Assembly (NCBI GenBank): GCA_965647125.1 | Contig: CBFGCD010000001.1 | Coordinates: 186,449-250,448, forward strand | DNA: 64,000 nt | Reading direction: 5' to 3' | DNA from: Candidatus Gastranaerophilaceae bacterium | Lineage (GTDB): Bacteria > Cyanobacteriota > Vampirovibrionia > Gastranaerophilales > Gastranaerophilaceae | Part shown: one piece after another, positions 44,188-58,821 of the stretch | How positions within the stretch are numbered: position 1 is the stretch's first letter | Layout of the letters: the number at the start of each line of letters is the position of its first letter | Notes under the pieces: model-generated | The model's input: only the letters and a program-made list of their open reading frames with translations | Told to the model about the DNA's origin: nothing | Database searches by the model: none | Made by a program: the position numbers and the translations under genes

Positions 44188-45012
44188 TTAAATAATTGAT
44201 TTTGTTAAACGCTCCGAACGATTTTGAGATAAAATATTTCTTAATTTCATAATTGCCTGTGCATGAAGCTGGCAGACGCGGGATTCTGAAACATTAATTG
44301 CTTCGCCGATTTCTTTTAAGGTCATATTTTCATGATAATAGAAAACAAGCAAAGTCCTCTCGCGTTCGGGAAGCTTTTTAAGTGCGTTTTCAAGTTCACG
44401 CTTGGCATCTGTCCTCTCAATTTCATCATCAGGCTGTGATGTGTTTTCATCCTCAATTGTATCGATAATTTCTACGCTGTCTTCACCTGATCCTTTTTTG
44501 TCGTAAATTGAATTAACCGATAAATCGCTTGACATAATTTCAAGGATTTTTTCTTCTTCCATTCCCAGAACATCTGCAACTTCTTTTGTTGAGGGCGCTC
44601 TACCCATTTGCTGTTTTAAGCGTTCGGTTGCAATTTTAATTTCTTTGATTTTTTTTCTTAAACTTCTTGGAAGCCAATCATCGGAGCGGATTTTATCGAT
44701 AATTGAACCTCTTATTCTCATTAGCGCGTAAGATTCAAATTTAGCACCTTTAGACGGATGATACTTTTCAATCGCATCAATTAAACCCTCAATTCCAAAA
44801 GAAACAATATCTTCAAAAGAAAAAGTATTGGGAAGATTAACTTTTATTCTTCCAACAACATAACGCGCAAGGTAAATATATTGAACAATTAATTTATCTC
44901 TGCATTTTTTGTTTGTTTTATCTTCTAAATAAGTTTCCCAAAGTTTTTCCAAGTCTTCTTGTGAAAGTTTATTTATTTTTTTATATGAATCAATGTCTGT
45001 TGTCTGACTCAT
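44188..45012 (-). CDS. fliA: RNA polymerase sigma-28 factor (FliA/WhiG family)
   Basis: Region 2 DIVSFGIEGLIDAIEKYHPSKGAKFESYALMRIRGSIIDKIR; DWLPRSLR; region 4 LVFYYHENMTLKEIGEAINVSESRVCQLHAQAIMKLR. Confidence 0.85.
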   Translation of the reverse strand: MSQTTDIDSYKKINKLSQEDLEKLWETYLEDKTNKKCRDKLIVQYIYLARYVVGRIKVNLPNTFSFEDIVSFGIEGLIDAIEKYHPSKGAKFESYALMRIRGSIIDKIRSDDWLPRSLRKKIKEIKIATERLKQQMGRAPSTKEVADVLGMEEEKILEIMSSDLSVNSIYDKKGSGEDSVEIIDTIEDENTSQPDDEIERTDAKRELENALKKLPERERTLLVFYYHENMTLKEIGEAINVSESRVCQLHAQAIMKLRNILSQNRSERLTKSII

Positions 45013-45123: not shown

Positions 45124-45585
45124 TTATGTTGTTTCTAAGTTTTTGTTTATCATTTTTTTAGATTTTTCAACATTTTTCATTTTTTTATTTAATTCGTTAA
45201 TTTCATTTTTTAGATTTTTACAATGTTGTATTGCTTTTTCTTTTTCGGCTGTTGCTGTGTTATATTTTGCTGTTAAAACAGCAAGTTCTTGTCTTAATTC
45301 AACTTGTGCATCATCAAGGTTAACGAGTGCTGAATTAAATTTTTCTTGTTTGATTGATTGATAATTATTAACAGGTGTTGTTTGTGTTGTTGCTTTTGCG
45401 TTTGGTGTTGTGCTGGTTGTATTTTGCATTTTTAACTGTGGGGTTGTTGTTTTTGGAGTCGGAGGGGTGCTTGTTGCGTATTTTACTTCAATTGCCCTGT
45501 CTTGTGAATCAAAAACCGTTTCAAGAGCAAAAACATTTGTCGAAATTAGCGAAAGCGCAAACACATAAACTAATATTTTTTTCAT
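45124..45585 (-). CDS. secreted T/P-rich coiled-coil protein, unknown function
   Basis: MKKILVYVFALSLISTNVFA signal peptide, TTPPTPKTTTPQ low-complexity stretch, C-terminal heptad-like region. Confidence 0.55.
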   Translation of the reverse strand: MKKILVYVFALSLISTNVFALETVFDSQDRAIEVKYATSTPPTPKTTTPQLKMQNTTSTTPNAKATTQTTPVNNYQSIKQEKFNSALVNLDDAQVELRQELAVLTAKYNTATAEKEKAIQHCKNLKNEINELNKKMKNVEKSKKMINKNLETT

Positions 45586-52879: not shown

Positions 52880-52917
52880 TATAAAACAACCGCAAAACTG
52901 TTTTGTGTTTTGCGGTT
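52880..52917 (-). terminator. rho-independent terminator after the 873-aa gene
   Basis: AACCGCAAAAC-8 nt-GTTTTGCGGTT (11 bp, perfect) followed on the minus strand by GTTTTAT. Confidence 0.7.
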
Positions 52918-52941
52918 GGTTATTTTGAAATTTATTTGAAA

Positions 52942-55563
52942 TTATTTCATTTCGTCTTTAAATTGTTTGATTATTTGATTTTTTGATTTACCTTCTTGTA
53001 AAAGTTCTTTTGCTTCATCCATGGTGATTGAAACACCCTCTTTATAACCTTGCATTACTGTGCTCCAAGCATCATCCTGTAATTTTGCTTTGTCGCTTTC
53101 AGGGCCTTTGAGGTCATCTTGTAATTCAACGCATTTATCAACAATTGCTTCGGCACTTAAGTTTCCGTTTTGGACATAGAAACCGTGAGCTTGTTCCATA
53201 TCAACAATTACACCTTTTTTGTTTGCAATTGAGCGGATTTCGCTTTGCAGGCTGCCCCAGTTAACTGCTTGAGAGTTTGCTTGCGCTTCGTTTCCTGCTT
53301 GAATAACTTGCGCGTTGGTGTTGTCTTGAATTCTGTTTAATGCTTGATTGTAGCTTTCTTTATTGTCGCCTGCGATTTTTTCAACATTTAAAACCATTGC
53401 GGAATCTTTTATAAATTGGTCAAATGAAGCATTTTTAGCCGAGAATTTATCAACATTATTATCAACAATACTTTCAATATCGTTTTGGCTGAATCCTATT
53501 TCAAGTTTTTTGCCGTAACTTGCGCCATAAACTTTGTTCATATATGTTGTTGTTTCATCTTTTCTTGTTGCGGTTACATCTTTATTATTCATTTTGAAAG
53601 TCAGCTTGTCGTTGAATAATGCGGAATTGTTAATGTCAATCTTGCCTGTAGCATTATTAACTTCGTCTTCTTTTACTTTTGTTAAATCAATTTCAGATAT
53701 TCCCATTGATTTTGCGGATTGGATTGTGTAGTTAAGATTTGTAGTGGTTGAAGTATCTGTTACTGTTGCATTATCTTCAAACTCTACACCCAAAAGCTTT
53801 AATTGAGCCAACTCTTCACCTGTCAACTTGCCATCGTTATCAATATCCAGGCTTTGCAAGTCTTCAAGCCAGCTTTTTGAATCTGCTCCGACAAAATCAT
53901 TAGCGCCGCTGAATTTACCGTCTTTGTTTCTGTCAAGCGCAAAGATAAATTCTCTGTTTCCTTGTCTGAATGAAAGCGGGTCGGTTCTTTTGACCGTATC
54001 ATTATTTGCTGTATTGTTGTTTGTCGGTTTGCCGAGCAATTCTTCTTCGGTCTTGCCTGTTCTGTTTGTTTGACCATTCATTGCTTCTTTATAGCCCTGT
54101 GGAGTTTCGCCCCAGGTTGAATCTGTTTTTTGTGCAAATTTTTCTAAAAATTCTGCCGTTTCTTTGTCTGCTGCATTGTTAATTTTAAATTGCGGTTTGC
54201 CATCAGGTCCTATGAAATATTCAATTGCACCGTTGTCTTTGAAGATACCTGTGTCTTTATTAAATAAAGCCCACATTGATTCTTTGAATGAAAAACCGTT
54301 GTCATCAAATATTTTTAAGATTTGTTCGTAATTTTTTGCCAATTCTTGCAATTGCGGGTTGTAAGGAACTCCGTTTGCATCATTTTTAATTGAATTTTGA
54401 GAGTATTTTTCGGCATTTGTCGGGTCGAAATAAATACTTGCGCCTTGATTTGCGTTTGACTTGGGGAATCCGTTTACAAAGTTTATTAATTTGTTGTAAG
54501 CATCTTTGCTTGCTGCATCATGACCATAAGGAACGCTTAGTGCACCTGTATTTTTATCAAGAACAACATTTGCATTTGAAAAATATTTATCAAAGAAACT
54601 TTTTGCTTGATATGCTGTTAAACCTGCATTTTGCATATCTTTTAAAAAGTCGGGATTATTCATTAATGTTGCTAAATCTTGTGTTGCTTTGTTTGCAACG
54701 GAATTTGTATCAACATTAGGGGTTTTTGTATTTGTTAAATATTGTCCATATTTATTTAAGATGTTTTCAAGGGTTGATGTTTGATTTTTGACATCGTTAA
54801 CTGCGCTGTTTTCGTTTGAAACAGTGTGTTTTTCGGCGACATCTGTTACAACGTCAACTTTTTTAAGTGAATAAATCGGAGTGGCTGAATCAAGGTCTGA
54901 ATTTGTATAGCTTCCTGAAACTTTTCCGATTTGAGCAATTGATTTTGTTAAAATATTCATAGCCGAAGTTGTTGAAACATATTTTGCTTGAAGCATGTTT
55001 CTTTCATCAATCAAGCTTGTAATATTTTTAATCATTGAATCAAGAGCTGTTTTTTTGTTGTCTAAATTAGCTAAAATTAACTGGATTTCGCCTGCTAAGG
55101 ATGTATTTGTTGCATCTTTAATTCTTTTTCTGATTTCGCCTGAAACTTGGTCTTTATCAATTCTTCCGCGTCTGAATGAGGTCATTACATCATTTACGAT
55201 GTATGAAACATCGTCTTTTTGTTGTTTTTCAAGTTGTTTTGATTTTGATTGAGCGCTTAGGGCTAAATTTTCAATATTTTCTGATTCTTTGGCAACTTCT
55301 TTATCTTTTTTTGCCATGCGGTTTTCTAAGTCTTCAATTTGTTTTTCGTATTGTGTTAGTTTTGCTTGAAGAGCTTGTGATTGTTTGTTGATTGAAACTG
55401 TGTCGGCATTTGTTGCGTTGTTGTCATTAGTTCTTACAAACATTTGTAATTCTTGTTTGATTGCATTGACGCTTGTGTTTTTGTCAATGCTGCTGTCGTT
55501 CACACCTAAATTGGCAAGTTTTTTGATTAAATTCTCCGCATTTCCCGTATTAAAAACACTCAT
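52942..55563 (-). CDS. large orphan protein (873 aa) with N-terminal coiled coil and an EF-hand/dockerin-like Ca-binding pair
   Basis: Clean 2.6-kb ORF with no signal peptide. Coiled coil QALQAKLTQYEKQIEDLENRMAKKDKEV. DRNKDGKFSGANDF ... DIDNDGKLTGEEL (DxDxDGxLxxxE loop). N/T/D-rich. Sigma-28-type promoter upstream. Confidence 0.65.
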   Translation of the reverse strand: MSVFNTGNAENLIKKLANLGVNDSSIDKNTSVNAIKQELQMFVRTNDNNATNADTVSINKQSQALQAKLTQYEKQIEDLENRMAKKDKEVAKESENIENLALSAQSKSKQLEKQQKDDVSYIVNDVMTSFRRGRIDKDQVSGEIRKRIKDATNTSLAGEIQLILANLDNKKTALDSMIKNITSLIDERNMLQAKYVSTTSAMNILTKSIAQIGKVSGSYTNSDLDSATPIYSLKKVDVVTDVAEKHTVSNENSAVNDVKNQTSTLENILNKYGQYLTNTKTPNVDTNSVANKATQDLATLMNNPDFLKDMQNAGLTAYQAKSFFDKYFSNANVVLDKNTGALSVPYGHDAASKDAYNKLINFVNGFPKSNANQGASIYFDPTNAEKYSQNSIKNDANGVPYNPQLQELAKNYEQILKIFDDNGFSFKESMWALFNKDTGIFKDNGAIEYFIGPDGKPQFKINNAADKETAEFLEKFAQKTDSTWGETPQGYKEAMNGQTNRTGKTEEELLGKPTNNNTANNDTVKRTDPLSFRQGNREFIFALDRNKDGKFSGANDFVGADSKSWLEDLQSLDIDNDGKLTGEELAQLKLLGVEFEDNATVTDTSTTTNLNYTIQSAKSMGISEIDLTKVKEDEVNNATGKIDINNSALFNDKLTFKMNNKDVTATRKDETTTYMNKVYGASYGKKLEIGFSQNDIESIVDNNVDKFSAKNASFDQFIKDSAMVLNVEKIAGDNKESYNQALNRIQDNTNAQVIQAGNEAQANSQAVNWGSLQSEIRSIANKKGVIVDMEQAHGFYVQNGNLSAEAIVDKCVELQDDLKGPESDKAKLQDDAWSTVMQGYKEGVSITMDEAKELLQEGKSKNQIIKQFKDEMK

Positions 55564-55624
55564 GTTCCATTGTCCCTTTCGCAGTTAAAATAAAAACTTT
55601 ATTATATATAAAGGACTTCGGTAT

Positions 55625-55652
55625 TTTTAAGCTTAAACTTTAGGGTTTTTAA
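55625..55652 (-). promoter_or_regulatory. sigma-28 (FliA)-type promoter: TAAAGTTT-12 nt-ACCGAAGT
   Basis: Minus strand reads CCCTAAAGTTTAAGCTTAAAAATACCGAAGTCC, about 60 nt upstream of the 873-aa ORF. Enterobacterial consensus is TAAAGTTT-N11-GCCGATAA. The -35 is an exact 8/8 match, the CCGA core of the -10 is kept, and the spacer is 1 nt longer. Confidence 0.55.
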
Positions 55653-57070: not shown

Positions 57071-57844
57071 ATGGATATAGCAGCTTTAATCGGTTCAATA
57101 TTTGGGCTTGGATGTATATTGTTAGGACAGGCGCTTGAGGGTGGTAATATCGGACAATTGCTTCAAATTACCGCAGGTTTTATTGTAATCGGCGGTACGG
57201 CAGGGGCTGTTTTTTTAAGTTTTCCGATTGAAGATTTCAAAACTGCTCTAAAGTGTATTCAAATGGTGTATTTTGGAAAAACTCCGAAATTTGAAACAAT
57301 AATTTCAGAAATTGTCGGCTATGCTCAAAAAGCCAGAAAAGAGGGTGTTATCATTCTTGAAAAAGAAGCAAGAAATGCTTCTCATCCTCTTTTAAAACTT
57401 GGTCTTGAAGCTGTGGCAGACGGTGCTGATCCTACTTTGGTGCGTGATATGATGGAAACTCATTATGCGCAATATCAGGAAAAAATACTTGCAGGGGCGA
57501 AACTAATGGAATCTGCGGGTGGTTTTTCTCCGACTCTGGGTATCATCGGGGCGGTTTTGGGTTTGATTCAAGTAATGCAAAACCTTTCAGACCCCGCAAA
57601 ACTCGGCGCAGGGATTGCGGTTGCGTTTGTTGCTACGGTTTATGGTTTGGTTTTGGCTAATCTTTTTATGATTCCTTATGCGACACGTTCTAAACGTAAA
57701 TTTGCAAAAGTTTTTGTTTCTATGGAATTAATGATTGAGGGGATTTTATCTATCCAGGCAGGCGAATCTCCTGCTTTAATAGAGCGCAAGCTTGAATGTT
57801 ATATAATTGATGAAAAACCTGCTAAAAACGAGGCTAAAGCTTAA
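57071..57844 (+). CDS. motA: flagellar stator protein MotA/PomA
   Basis: 257 aa, 4 TM. C-terminal GIIGAVLGLIQVM...GIAVAFVATVYGLVLANLFMIP plug/channel region is typical of MotA. Confidence 0.85.
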   Translation: MDIAALIGSIFGLGCILLGQALEGGNIGQLLQITAGFIVIGGTAGAVFLSFPIEDFKTALKCIQMVYFGKTPKFETIISEIVGYAQKARKEGVIILEKEARNASHPLLKLGLEAVADGADPTLVRDMMETHYAQYQEKILAGAKLMESAGGFSPTLGIIGAVLGLIQVMQNLSDPAKLGAGIAVAFVATVYGLVLANLFMIPYATRSKRKFAKVFVSMELMIEGILSIQAGESPALIERKLECYIIDEKPAKNEAKA

Positions 57845-58821
57845 TGGCAAGAAAAAAACCACCTGAAGAACATGAAAATCTGGAGCGTTATTTAGTTTCT
57901 TATGCTGATTTTATGACGCTTCTGTTTGCAACATTTGTTGTTTTATATGCTTTAGCACAAACTGACGTCAACTCTTTCAAAGGGATTGAAGAAGCGCTAA
58001 GAAAAGCTTTCAGTCAGAGTATTTTTGAAAATAGCGATAAAACCATACTTGATGGCAAAGATTCAATTTTAGACGGTCAAGACGGACAAACAAACCCTCT
58101 TATGCTTGAATATATGAGTCAAAAATACGAGCAAAGTTCTTTTGAAGAAATTAAAGAAAAAATCGACAAAATGAAAGACTCCGGAATTTCTGCCGAAATT
58201 GATGAAAGAGGACTTGTTATTCGTCTTGATAATCATGCTGTACAGTTTTTATCAGGTTCTGCCGATATTGTTCCGCAAACTTTAAAAACGCTTGAAACTG
58301 TCGGCAAGTTAATTAAACAAAAATTCTCTATACACTTTATTCAAGTTGAAGGTCATACGGATTCTGACCCTGTTTCTAATGTTAAATATCCATCAAACTG
58401 GGAGTTATCTTCTGCGCGCGCTGCTGCTGTTATCAGACATTTAATTACAACCCAAAGTTTTAATCCAAAGGTTTTTATTTGTGTCGGTCTGGCAGATACA
58501 GTTCCTGCAAGCGAAAATACAAACAGTGTTAACAAAGCAAAAAACAGACGTGTTGAAATTGTTATTTTAAGAAATAAAAATAAATTTTTATCAAAGAAAA
58601 ATATGCAGCAGCTTTTAAATGAAGTTCAAGCGGAAAAAAACAAGCAAAATAAAACGCAAACCACTAGAGAAAGCTTGGAAAAATTGTTTAAAAATGACAG
58701 AGAAACACTTAAAAACGTTATTGATTTAAAAGACAGTTATGAAGCAGAAATTAAACGTCTTGAGATGATTGAACAGGAAAATTATACCCATGATGGTCTA
58801 AAACCTGAATTTATGGAATAA
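57844..58821 (+). CDS. motB: flagellar stator protein MotB (OmpA-like C-terminal domain)
   Basis: YLVSYADFMTLLFATFVVLYAL (conserved Asp in TM). GHTDSDPVSNVKYPSNWELSSARAAAV. NRRVEIVIL. Overlaps the motA stop (TAATG). Confidence 0.85.
   Translation: MARKKPPEEHENLERYLVSYADFMTLLFATFVVLYALAQTDVNSFKGIEEALRKAFSQSIFENSDKTILDGKDSILDGQDGQTNPLMLEYMSQKYEQSSFEEIKEKIDKMKDSGISAEIDERGLVIRLDNHAVQFLSGSADIVPQTLKTLETVGKLIKQKFSIHFIQVEGHTDSDPVSNVKYPSNWELSSARAAAVIRHLITTQSFNPKVFICVGLADTVPASENTNSVNKAKNRRVEIVILRNKNKFLSKKNMQQLLNEVQAEKNKQNKTQTTRESLEKLFKNDRETLKNVIDLKDSYEAEIKRLEMIEQENYTHDGLKPEFME

Follow-up and report, generated by a model that had tools for sequence, protein, structure and literature searches.

In this report, we focus on a gene of a Candidatus Gastranaerophilaceae bacterium that encodes a protein of 873 amino acids (aa), P0001, and on the sigma-28-type promoter that stands before it. 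The gene lies in a stretch of 64,000 nucleotides (nt), hereafter the window, from a genome (G000) of 2.06 megabases, 31.6% guanine plus cytosine and 99.9% completeness. Beyond the window we relied on our own crude calls of open reading frames (ORF), by which 91% of the genome is coding. The promoter is conserved in all the orthologues that we compared, and the regulon that it defines leaves out the main flagellins and the motor genes. The genome holds two flagellar-type export sets, the second of which is kept, together with the gene family and its promoters, by a relative in which flagellin is unmatched. On this basis, we see about an even chance that the protein is a sigma-28-controlled cargo or an external part of a second, non-rotary flagellum-like machine.

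The locus

The 873-aa ORF has its own upstream promoter and leader, and a hairpin with a T-run follows its stop codon, so that it forms a monocistronic unit. The gene of the sigma-28 factor, fliA, is solitary; it adjoins tpiA and lies 8 kilobases (kb) from the 873-aa gene. Its product matches TIGR02479 at 242.1 bits, for a cut-off of 189.6, with sigma-70 regions 2, 3 and 4 all found, and exactly one FliA is present in each of the 39 relatives that have an above-cut-off match to this profile. The motA and motB genes, recognised by Pfam, complete the picture that a preliminary description of this DNA had drawn of the window, in which the ORF, the strong terminator at its end, fliA and motAB are all found as described (Table 1). 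In relatives, the neighbours of the family gene are bioB (convergent), bioD and an aconitase-family gene, and the linkage to motAB is not conserved.

Table 1. Positions of the features discussed in the text, in window coordinates or, when preceded by a C-number, on the contigs of G000
Feature	Position	Strand	Remarks
Coding sequence of the 873-aa protein (P0001)	52942..55563	minus	starts MSVFNTGNAENLIKKLANLG; monocistronic
-35 element TAAAGTTT	55635..55642	minus	8/8 against the enterobacterial consensus; starts 79 nt upstream of ATG
Promoter spacer aagcttaaaaat	55623..55634	minus	12 nt, against 11 in the enterobacterial consensus
-10 element ACCGAAGT	55615..55622	minus	CCGA core only, 4/8 against the consensus; ends 51 nt before ATG
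Direct repeat TGTAAA-N4-TGTAAA, TGTAAATTTTTGTAAA	55660..55675	minus	17 nt upstream of the -35 element
Conserved leader GAAAGGGACAATGGAAC (GAAAGGGACAATGGAAY)	55564..55580	minus	abuts ATG; Shine-Dalgarno and second GGA
Intrinsic terminator	52887..52918	minus	12-base-pair stem, 6 GC pairs, T-run; 24 nt past stop
Long antiparallel helical hairpin (coiled-coil stalk)	aa 52-212; 54928..55410	minus	helix 52-131, return helices 137-212
Beta-rich domain with two calcium (Ca)-type loops	aa 526-671; 53551..53988	minus	known fold not found
Ca-type loop 1 DRNKDGKFSGAN	aa 544-555; 53899..53934	minus	position 12 is N
Ca-type loop 2 DIDNDGKLTGEE	aa 573-584; 53812..53847	minus	canonical 12-residue EF loop, short flanking helices
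Sigma-70-like TTAAAA-N18-TATAAT	55601..55630		overlaps the sigma-28 site; consensus scan
fliA (sigma-28)	44188..45012	minus	TIGR02479
motA	57071..57844	plus	Pfam
motB	57844..58821	plus	Pfam
153-aa ORF	45124-45585	minus	Pfam-less; just upstream of fliA
System 1, compared canonical loci	C1:387870-394713, C2:283391-288484		FlhA1-FlhB-FliR-FliQ-FliP and FlgB/C-FliE on C1; FliF1-FliG-FliH-FliI on C2
System 2, part 1	C4:59431-66272		lytic transglycosylase, FliE2, FliF2, 316-aa protein, 271-aa protein, FlhA2
System 2, part 2	C4:137030-138966		FliP2/Q2/R2
System 2, part 3	C2:39580-41865		four rod-like proteins
500-aa protein	C3:51401-52903		FHIPEP profile positions 321-655 only
~1030-aa paralogues	C1:250983-254099, C1:277759-280839		first one 535 nt past the window end; HD-like motif by eye in both
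MGL(A/S)ASQARFL paralogues	C3:21522-22547, C2:166673-167401		coiled-coil end; sites of 19.3 and 15.6 bits
240-aa CHAP protein	C2:93053-93775		Pfam; behind a sigma-28 site
816-aa coiled-coil protein	C1:66499-68949		C-terminus CHAP-like by eye; behind a sigma-28 site
738-aa protein	C1:281204-283420		sub-threshold EF-hand, coiled coil, lysozyme-like C-terminus by eye; behind a sigma-28 site
Major flagellins (MAVTINTNVD...)	C5:120340-121229, C3:36758-37700, C5:73300-74289		without sigma-28 motif
Divergent flagellin	C8:46381-47346		site of 14.6 bits
135-aa protein	C8:49730-50137		site of 20.4 bits; near the divergent flagellin
csrA and fliW	C2:6290-6833

A sigma-28 promoter that travels with the gene

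The enterobacterial sigma-28 consensus, that of FliA in Escherichia coli and Salmonella, is TAAAGTTT-N11-GCCGATAA, and that of SigD in Bacillus subtilis is TAAA-N15-GCCGATAT. To the elements of the 873-aa gene listed in Table 1 we could add those of its orthologues, through a footprint of 21 orthologue loci from 19 same-genus genomes (L001-L008, L014-L025). The pattern TAAAGTTT-N12(11)-G[C/T]CGATAA is found in 21 of the 21 upstream regions, 33-57 nt before the ATG wherever the start codon is clear, and in none of the 20 sites other than the query does the T, A, A or G of TAAAG vary, nor does the CG of the -10 element. The footprinted proteins share only 29-37% of their residues with the query, apart from the closest species with 72%, and the gene that lies upstream varies from one locus to the other, so that the motif travels with the gene.

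A two-block matrix was then built from the 20 orthologue sites, the query being excluded, and both strands of the whole of G000 were scanned with it. The promoter of the 873-aa gene scores 18.4 bits and ranks 14th genome-wide; 13 of the 14 top matches are intergenic, in spite of the high coding fraction, and most of the top matches point to a start codon 17-120 nt downstream. The spacing is also selective, with 14 intergenic matches at N11 and 9 at N12 that reach 15 bits or more, while every other spacer from 4 to 23 gives 0-3, and this peak at 11-12 is absent from the matches in coding regions. Plain counts of TAAA-Nx-CCGA as a regular expression showed no intergenic enrichment in G000, and because this cruder count is flat, the promoter signal must require both full blocks. 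Conservation and genome-wide statistics taken together make it highly probable that the 873-aa gene depends on sigma-28, and FliA, rather than another group-3 sigma factor, is the likely reader of its promoter. FliA would then transcribe the single-gene unit from a predicted start near 55608, a few bases past ACCGAAGT, giving a leader of about 45 nt and a transcript that would end at the hairpin at 52918..52887.

Two further features surround this promoter. The double TGTAAA is found upstream of nearly all 21 orthologues, and TGTAAA-N4-TGTAAA has 13 intergenic copies in G000, one of which precedes another sigma-28 promoter (C1:281112) and another of which stands immediately before a transfer RNA gene. 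At least 8 orthologues have nearly the same leader in spite of a protein identity of about 35%. The two GGA motifs of this leader are only 8 nt apart, and the genome encodes both csrA and fliW; control by CsrA, or a tiny overlapping out-of-frame ATG, may be considered as candidate features only. Several sigma-28 promoters (C1:85970, C8:50184, C1:277689, C1:254149, C3:154638 and C10:10068) carry TAAGGW or AAGGA about 8-10 nt after the -10 element, near the expected 5' end, which could be a shared leader signal.

A lineage-restricted family with two confidently modelled domains

The preliminary description had called the protein an orphan. This is too strong: nothing in Pfam or in the Protein Data Bank (PDB) corresponds to it, but homologues do exist. 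They fall into 16 clusters at 90% identity, and a search of 1.84 billion proteins gave 99 representatives at 50% identity, of which 31 reach E<=1e-30. None bears a functional name, and their sole named source is 'Candidatus Gastranaerophilales'. The family is restricted to the Gastranaerophilales, non-photosynthetic Melainabacteria/Vampirovibrionia, and it is through this one named homologue that the organism was placed among them. Full-length homologues are present in 19 of 24 same-genus genomes, with 0-3 copies per genome, and other families of the order match residues ~508-688 only. The divergence of the family proceeds at about twice the rate seen for the rod protein FlgF2: in the same genomes, identity is 35-37% for the family and 67-73% for FlgF2. 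Searches of Pfam, NCBIfam, PHROGs and PDB, the last with phmmer and profiles, returned only coiled-coil noise and sub-threshold EF-hand matches. Among the profiles of Pfam and NCBIfam, Flagellin_N/C, Flg_bb_rod, FliD_N/C and FlgM, which stand for flagellin, FlgK/L, FliD and FlgM, were unmatched up to E=1, which agrees with the earlier statement that the protein is none of these.

The structure prediction that had been proposed for this protein was made with AlphaFold2 on a 42-sequence alignment (model m5696570af0c0), and it is confident, with a mean predicted local distance difference test (pLDDT) of 86 and a predicted template modelling score (pTM) of 0.66 over the full length. In this model, the polar N-terminus is disordered over residues 1-9 and leads to the helical hairpin, a stalk of about 115 Å as estimated from its 80-residue helix, which bears out the N-terminal coiled coil of the preliminary description. 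The hairpin leads to a strand at the conserved SYTNSD block, followed by an alpha-rich domain (aa 265-497) with a conserved F-x-F-K-E-x-M-x-A-L-F...G-x-F-K-D block, a disordered linker (aa 498-522), the beta-rich domain and a C-terminal helical bundle (aa 672-872). The beta domain is the sole part common to other protein architectures of the order, and residues 523-700 modelled alone reach a pLDDT of 88.6 and a pTM of 0.83. Foldseek found no PDB counterpart, either for the full model (best E 0.22, flagellar filament chains appearing only at E>=1.5 with a template modelling (TM) score of ~0.05) or for the 523-700 domain (best E 0.07, TM 0.25). The protein has neither a signal peptide, as had been noted, nor a transmembrane segment, the highest 19-residue Kyte-Doolittle mean being 0.52.

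The two Ca-type loops announced by the preliminary description are indeed present. In most orthologues, loop 1 reads DRN-x-DG-x-FSG-x-E, with E at position 12. Loop 2 conforms to the 12-residue DxDxDG...E pattern of an EF-hand loop, and EF-hand profiles reach loop 2 only, always below threshold (EF-hand_5 at 16.8 against 25.9 bits, EF-hand_1 at 15.4 against 25.4, and EF-hand_6). The likeness to EF-hand and dockerin-type loops lies in two 12-residue DxNxDGxxxxxE loops, 29 residues apart, of which the second is flanked by helices. It does not extend to a paired helix-loop-helix arrangement, since a beta strand precedes loop 1 and the domain, which is without PDB counterpart, is mostly beta; nor is Dockerin matched. 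We consider that the loops may bind Ca.

The sigma-28 regulon of G000

The matrix defines about 20 sigma-28 promoter units in G000, and its high-scoring intergenic sites precede mostly Pfam-less proteins of 106-580 aa. The larger products include a pair of paralogues of about 1030 aa, behind sites of 18.8 and 20.0 bits; the one that was scanned against Pfam gave a sub-threshold HD match (19.7 against 22 bits). Another pair of paralogues starts with MGL(A/S)ASQARFL, and the one that was scanned lacked any meaningful Pfam match; these two are possible structural components of the second apparatus described below. The regulon also contains a CHAP protein and two larger proteins with hydrolase-like ends (Table 1), and, by eye, no signal peptide was seen in its three apparent cell-wall hydrolases. 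It further includes a response regulator with an HD-GYP-type domain, recognised by eye, and the rod-protein operon of the second export set. In most same-genus genomes, this operon, that of FlgF2, has a sigma-28-like element 48-57 nt upstream, a promoter of the TTGACTTT type. An extension of the operons 3' of the matrix matches was dropped, as it ran into housekeeping genes, among them those of a transporter, RlmH and thymidine phosphorylase.

The genes that one would expect to find first in such a regulon are outside it. Within 300 nt of the three major flagellins, motAB, fliA, csrA-fliW and the canonical flagellar operons, no site was found (best at most 4.5 bits), and for the major flagellins, motAB and the operons of FliF1, FliP1 and FlgB1 the best score is at most 4.2 bits. 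Two of the three major flagellins share instead AAAC(C)TTTCT(T)ATAATTC upstream. FlgM was not detected by Pfam in G000. Two ORFs could be noted as candidate anti-sigma factors, namely the 135-aa protein that stands behind a sigma-28 site near the divergent flagellin and the Pfam-less 153-aa ORF just upstream of fliA.

These results can be set against what the preliminary description had proposed. It had recognised a near-consensus sigma-28 promoter, which the footprint, the genome-wide rank obtained in the matrix scan that it had suggested and the spacer peak all uphold. It had also named what would speak against its proposal, a different promoter pattern at the flagellin genes and a random frequency of the motif: the former is largely the case, as flagellin and motor genes mostly have other promoters, whereas the motif is far from random. 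Its conclusion that the 873-aa gene is a late (class III) flagellar gene is not supported in that form, given that the motif is missing from three of the four flagellins, from motAB and from the canonical export and basal-body operons, and that the family and its promoters are kept by the relative described below, which has no match to flagellin, FlhA1, FliP1, FliF1, FliG_C or MotB.

Compared with the class 3 promoters of FliA and SigD, the family consensus elements are the same, the sigma factor is a FliA orthologue and the regulon is likewise dispersed over about 20 promoters. The SigD regulon of B. subtilis contains cell-wall hydrolases, and so does that of G000. The differences are that a spacer of 12 is here as frequent as one of 11, that the major flagellins, motAB and the canonical operons are outside the regulon while the rod operon of a second system is inside it, and that the regulon persists in a relative without flagellin or motor.

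Two flagellar-type export sets and a relative that keeps one

G000 carries two full-length FHIPEP genes, whose products are 37.5% identical to each other, as well as two FliP and two FliF. We call the canonical set System 1 and the other one System 2; FHIPEP, FliP, FliF and the rod proteins were assigned by profile, and the remaining parts of System 2 were named by sequence reading. No FliG_C or MotB belonging to System 2 was found, each flagellated genome having one FliG_C and one MotB. Orthologues of FlhA2, with 66-80% identity, are present in 55 of the 61 genomes drawn from the order; in 4 others the best identity is only 39-40%, that of an FlhA1-like protein, and 2 are unmatched. FlgF2 and FlhA2 are no more than about 8 kb apart in other genera. 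A third protein, of 500 aa, matches only the part of the FHIPEP profile that corresponds to the FlhA cytoplasmic domain, and it is conserved in 5 of 5 genomes checked.

Earlier work agrees with this. Di Rienzi et al. (2013) reported that ACD20 has two flhA genes and shares a subset of flagellar genes with the non-flagellated MEL.A1 (PMC3787301), and Soo et al. (2014) reported that non-flagellated Gastranaerophilales keep a 'subset of flagella genes' (PMC4040986). That subset (flgG, flgG, flgC, fliF, fliH, flhA, fliP, fliQ, fliR) appears to be System 2. It was regarded there as a part or remnant of one flagellum, whereas here it stands apart as a conserved set of paralogues whose rod operon has a sigma-28-like promoter.

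Flagellin and FliA are present in almost all of 41 relatives, and because of this the co-occurrence of the 873-aa family with them is uninformative, with the exception of a single genome, G011. This genome, from the same genus, is 97% complete in 20 contigs. It is unmatched for Flagellin_N, FlhA1, FliP1, FliF1, FliG_C and MotB_plug, and has just one rod-domain match. It keeps FliA, FlhA2, FliP2, FliF2 and FlgF2. The 873-aa family is also kept there in 2-3 copies, and a sigma-28 motif precedes each of them (L006, L022).

What the protein may do

We propose that FliA would turn on the 873-aa gene together with the second, non-rotary machine, and that the protein would leave the cytoplasm through System 2, as a cargo or as an external, Ca-stabilised component. 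Export as such we rate as possible, at somewhat less than an even chance. For this rating we rely on several traits of the protein, namely that it has no Sec signal, that its polar N-terminus is disordered and that it carries Ca-type loops, on the fast divergence and variable copy number of the family, on the cell-wall hydrolases under the same control, which are likewise devoid of signal peptides, and on the single case of G011. The absence of a Sec signal, a disordered polar N-terminus and co-expression under sigma-28 are traits of flagellar type III substrates, and they are permissive rather than diagnostic. If the protein is exported, the second, non-rotary system is a more likely route than the rotating flagellum.

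A model for such a situation exists in Campylobacter jejuni, where, according to PMC9856085, which cites Barrero-Tobon & Hendrixson 2012 and Goon et al. 2006 for these genes, the sigma-28-dependent non-flagellar genes comprise the flagellar coexpressed determinants FedA-D, CiaI and FspA, several of whose products are exported via the flagellar type III apparatus. These proteins resemble the 873-aa protein in being lineage-specific, Sec-less, placed behind sigma-28 promoters and co-expressed with a flagellar-type apparatus. They differ in that they are small, whereas this one is a multi-domain protein of 873 aa with no sequence or fold similarity to them, in that export is shown there and inferred here, and in that the likely partner machine here is not the rotating flagellum.

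Several observations weigh against our proposal. The only natural case, G011, is a genome assembled from a metagenome. Five of the 24 same-genus genomes lack the family while holding both export systems, so that the family cannot belong to the core of either machine; together with the absence of profile similarity, this also led us to set aside a role as System 2 hook, cap or ruler. No chaperone-like partner gene was found adjacent to the family gene in a neighbourhood search of the relatives, which met only the neighbours named above and other genes without relation to it. Loop 1 of this protein has N instead of E or D at position 12, and the -10 element is the weakest part of the motif in G000. 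Further group-3-like sigma factors are encoded in G000 and might read similar promoters. Finally, the regulon is not cleanly restricted to System 2, because the divergent flagellin has a sigma-28 site, albeit a weaker one.

The most serious rival is a purely cytoplasmic role, in which the protein would be merely co-regulated by sigma-28 and never exported, as a coiled-coil scaffold or a regulator linked to the state of a motile or secretion-competent cell. Sigma-28 regulons elsewhere contain cytoplasmic proteins, and this one holds the response regulator mentioned above; the compact, confidently predicted model contains a long coiled coil of the kind found in many intracellular scaffolds, and the deduced nature of export, the missing chaperone gene and the dispensability of the family would fit as well. 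Yet EF-type loops are more typical of extracellular proteins, and here they are conserved and lie within a beta domain; the family diverges rapidly and varies in copy number, and the co-regulated hydrolases without signal peptides must exit the cytoplasm somehow. On balance, we regard a cytoplasmic role as rather unlikely.

We find it improbable that the gene is instead a FliA-driven class III gene, turned on once the hook is complete, whose product acts with the rotating flagellum, or is secreted through it, for instance as a sheath, adhesion or filament factor. The type of the promoter, the site before the divergent flagellin, the presence of flagellin and FliA in nearly all the relatives that hold the family and the Campylobacter proteins exported by the flagellum would all agree with it. 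Against this stand the major flagellins, motAB and System 1 operons, which are free of the motif, the lack of a conserved proximity to motAB, and G011, in which System 1 markers are unmatched and the family is retained, duplicated, with its promoters. Lastly, transcription from the overlapping sigma-70-like site, or read-through from the aconitase-family gene, is very improbable: that site has 10 of 12 matches in a consensus scan and several orthologues carry TGTATAAAAT immediately 3' of the -10 element, but sigma-70-like sites are as frequent as in shuffled sequence (11 observed, 11.6 expected), the TATAAT-like element is found in a subset of the orthologues whereas the sigma-28 elements are in all, and the upstream neighbour changes among genomes while the motif stays with the gene.

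Coming back to a sigma-28-controlled component of the second machine, its widest form, which we advance tentatively, would make the family a cargo or external Ca-stabilised part of an unrecognised, flagellum-derived, non-rotary type III machine that is order-wide and controlled by FliA. The sigma-28 factor of this lineage would then run a secretion programme made of fast-evolving orphans and hydrolases, rather than the synthesis of flagellin.

Significance

Textbooks present sigma-28 as the 'late flagellar' sigma factor. The well-supported regulon described here is made up for the most part of lineage-specific proteins that lack signal peptides; neither the main flagellins nor the motor belong to it, and a relative in which the flagellum was lost has retained it. 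The 873-aa family also offers two confidently modelled domains that have no counterpart in the PDB. Gastranaerophilales are common in human and animal guts and are uncultured, and for this reason promoter-based prediction is one of the few routes into their cell biology. If the link to System 2 is true, a secretion system derived from the flagellum, with a cargo of its own under sigma-28 control, would be present in gut Gastranaerophilales. It would parallel, independently, the way in which the injectisome arose, and the promoter set would be a direct list of candidate substrates, with the 873-aa family among its best-conserved entries.

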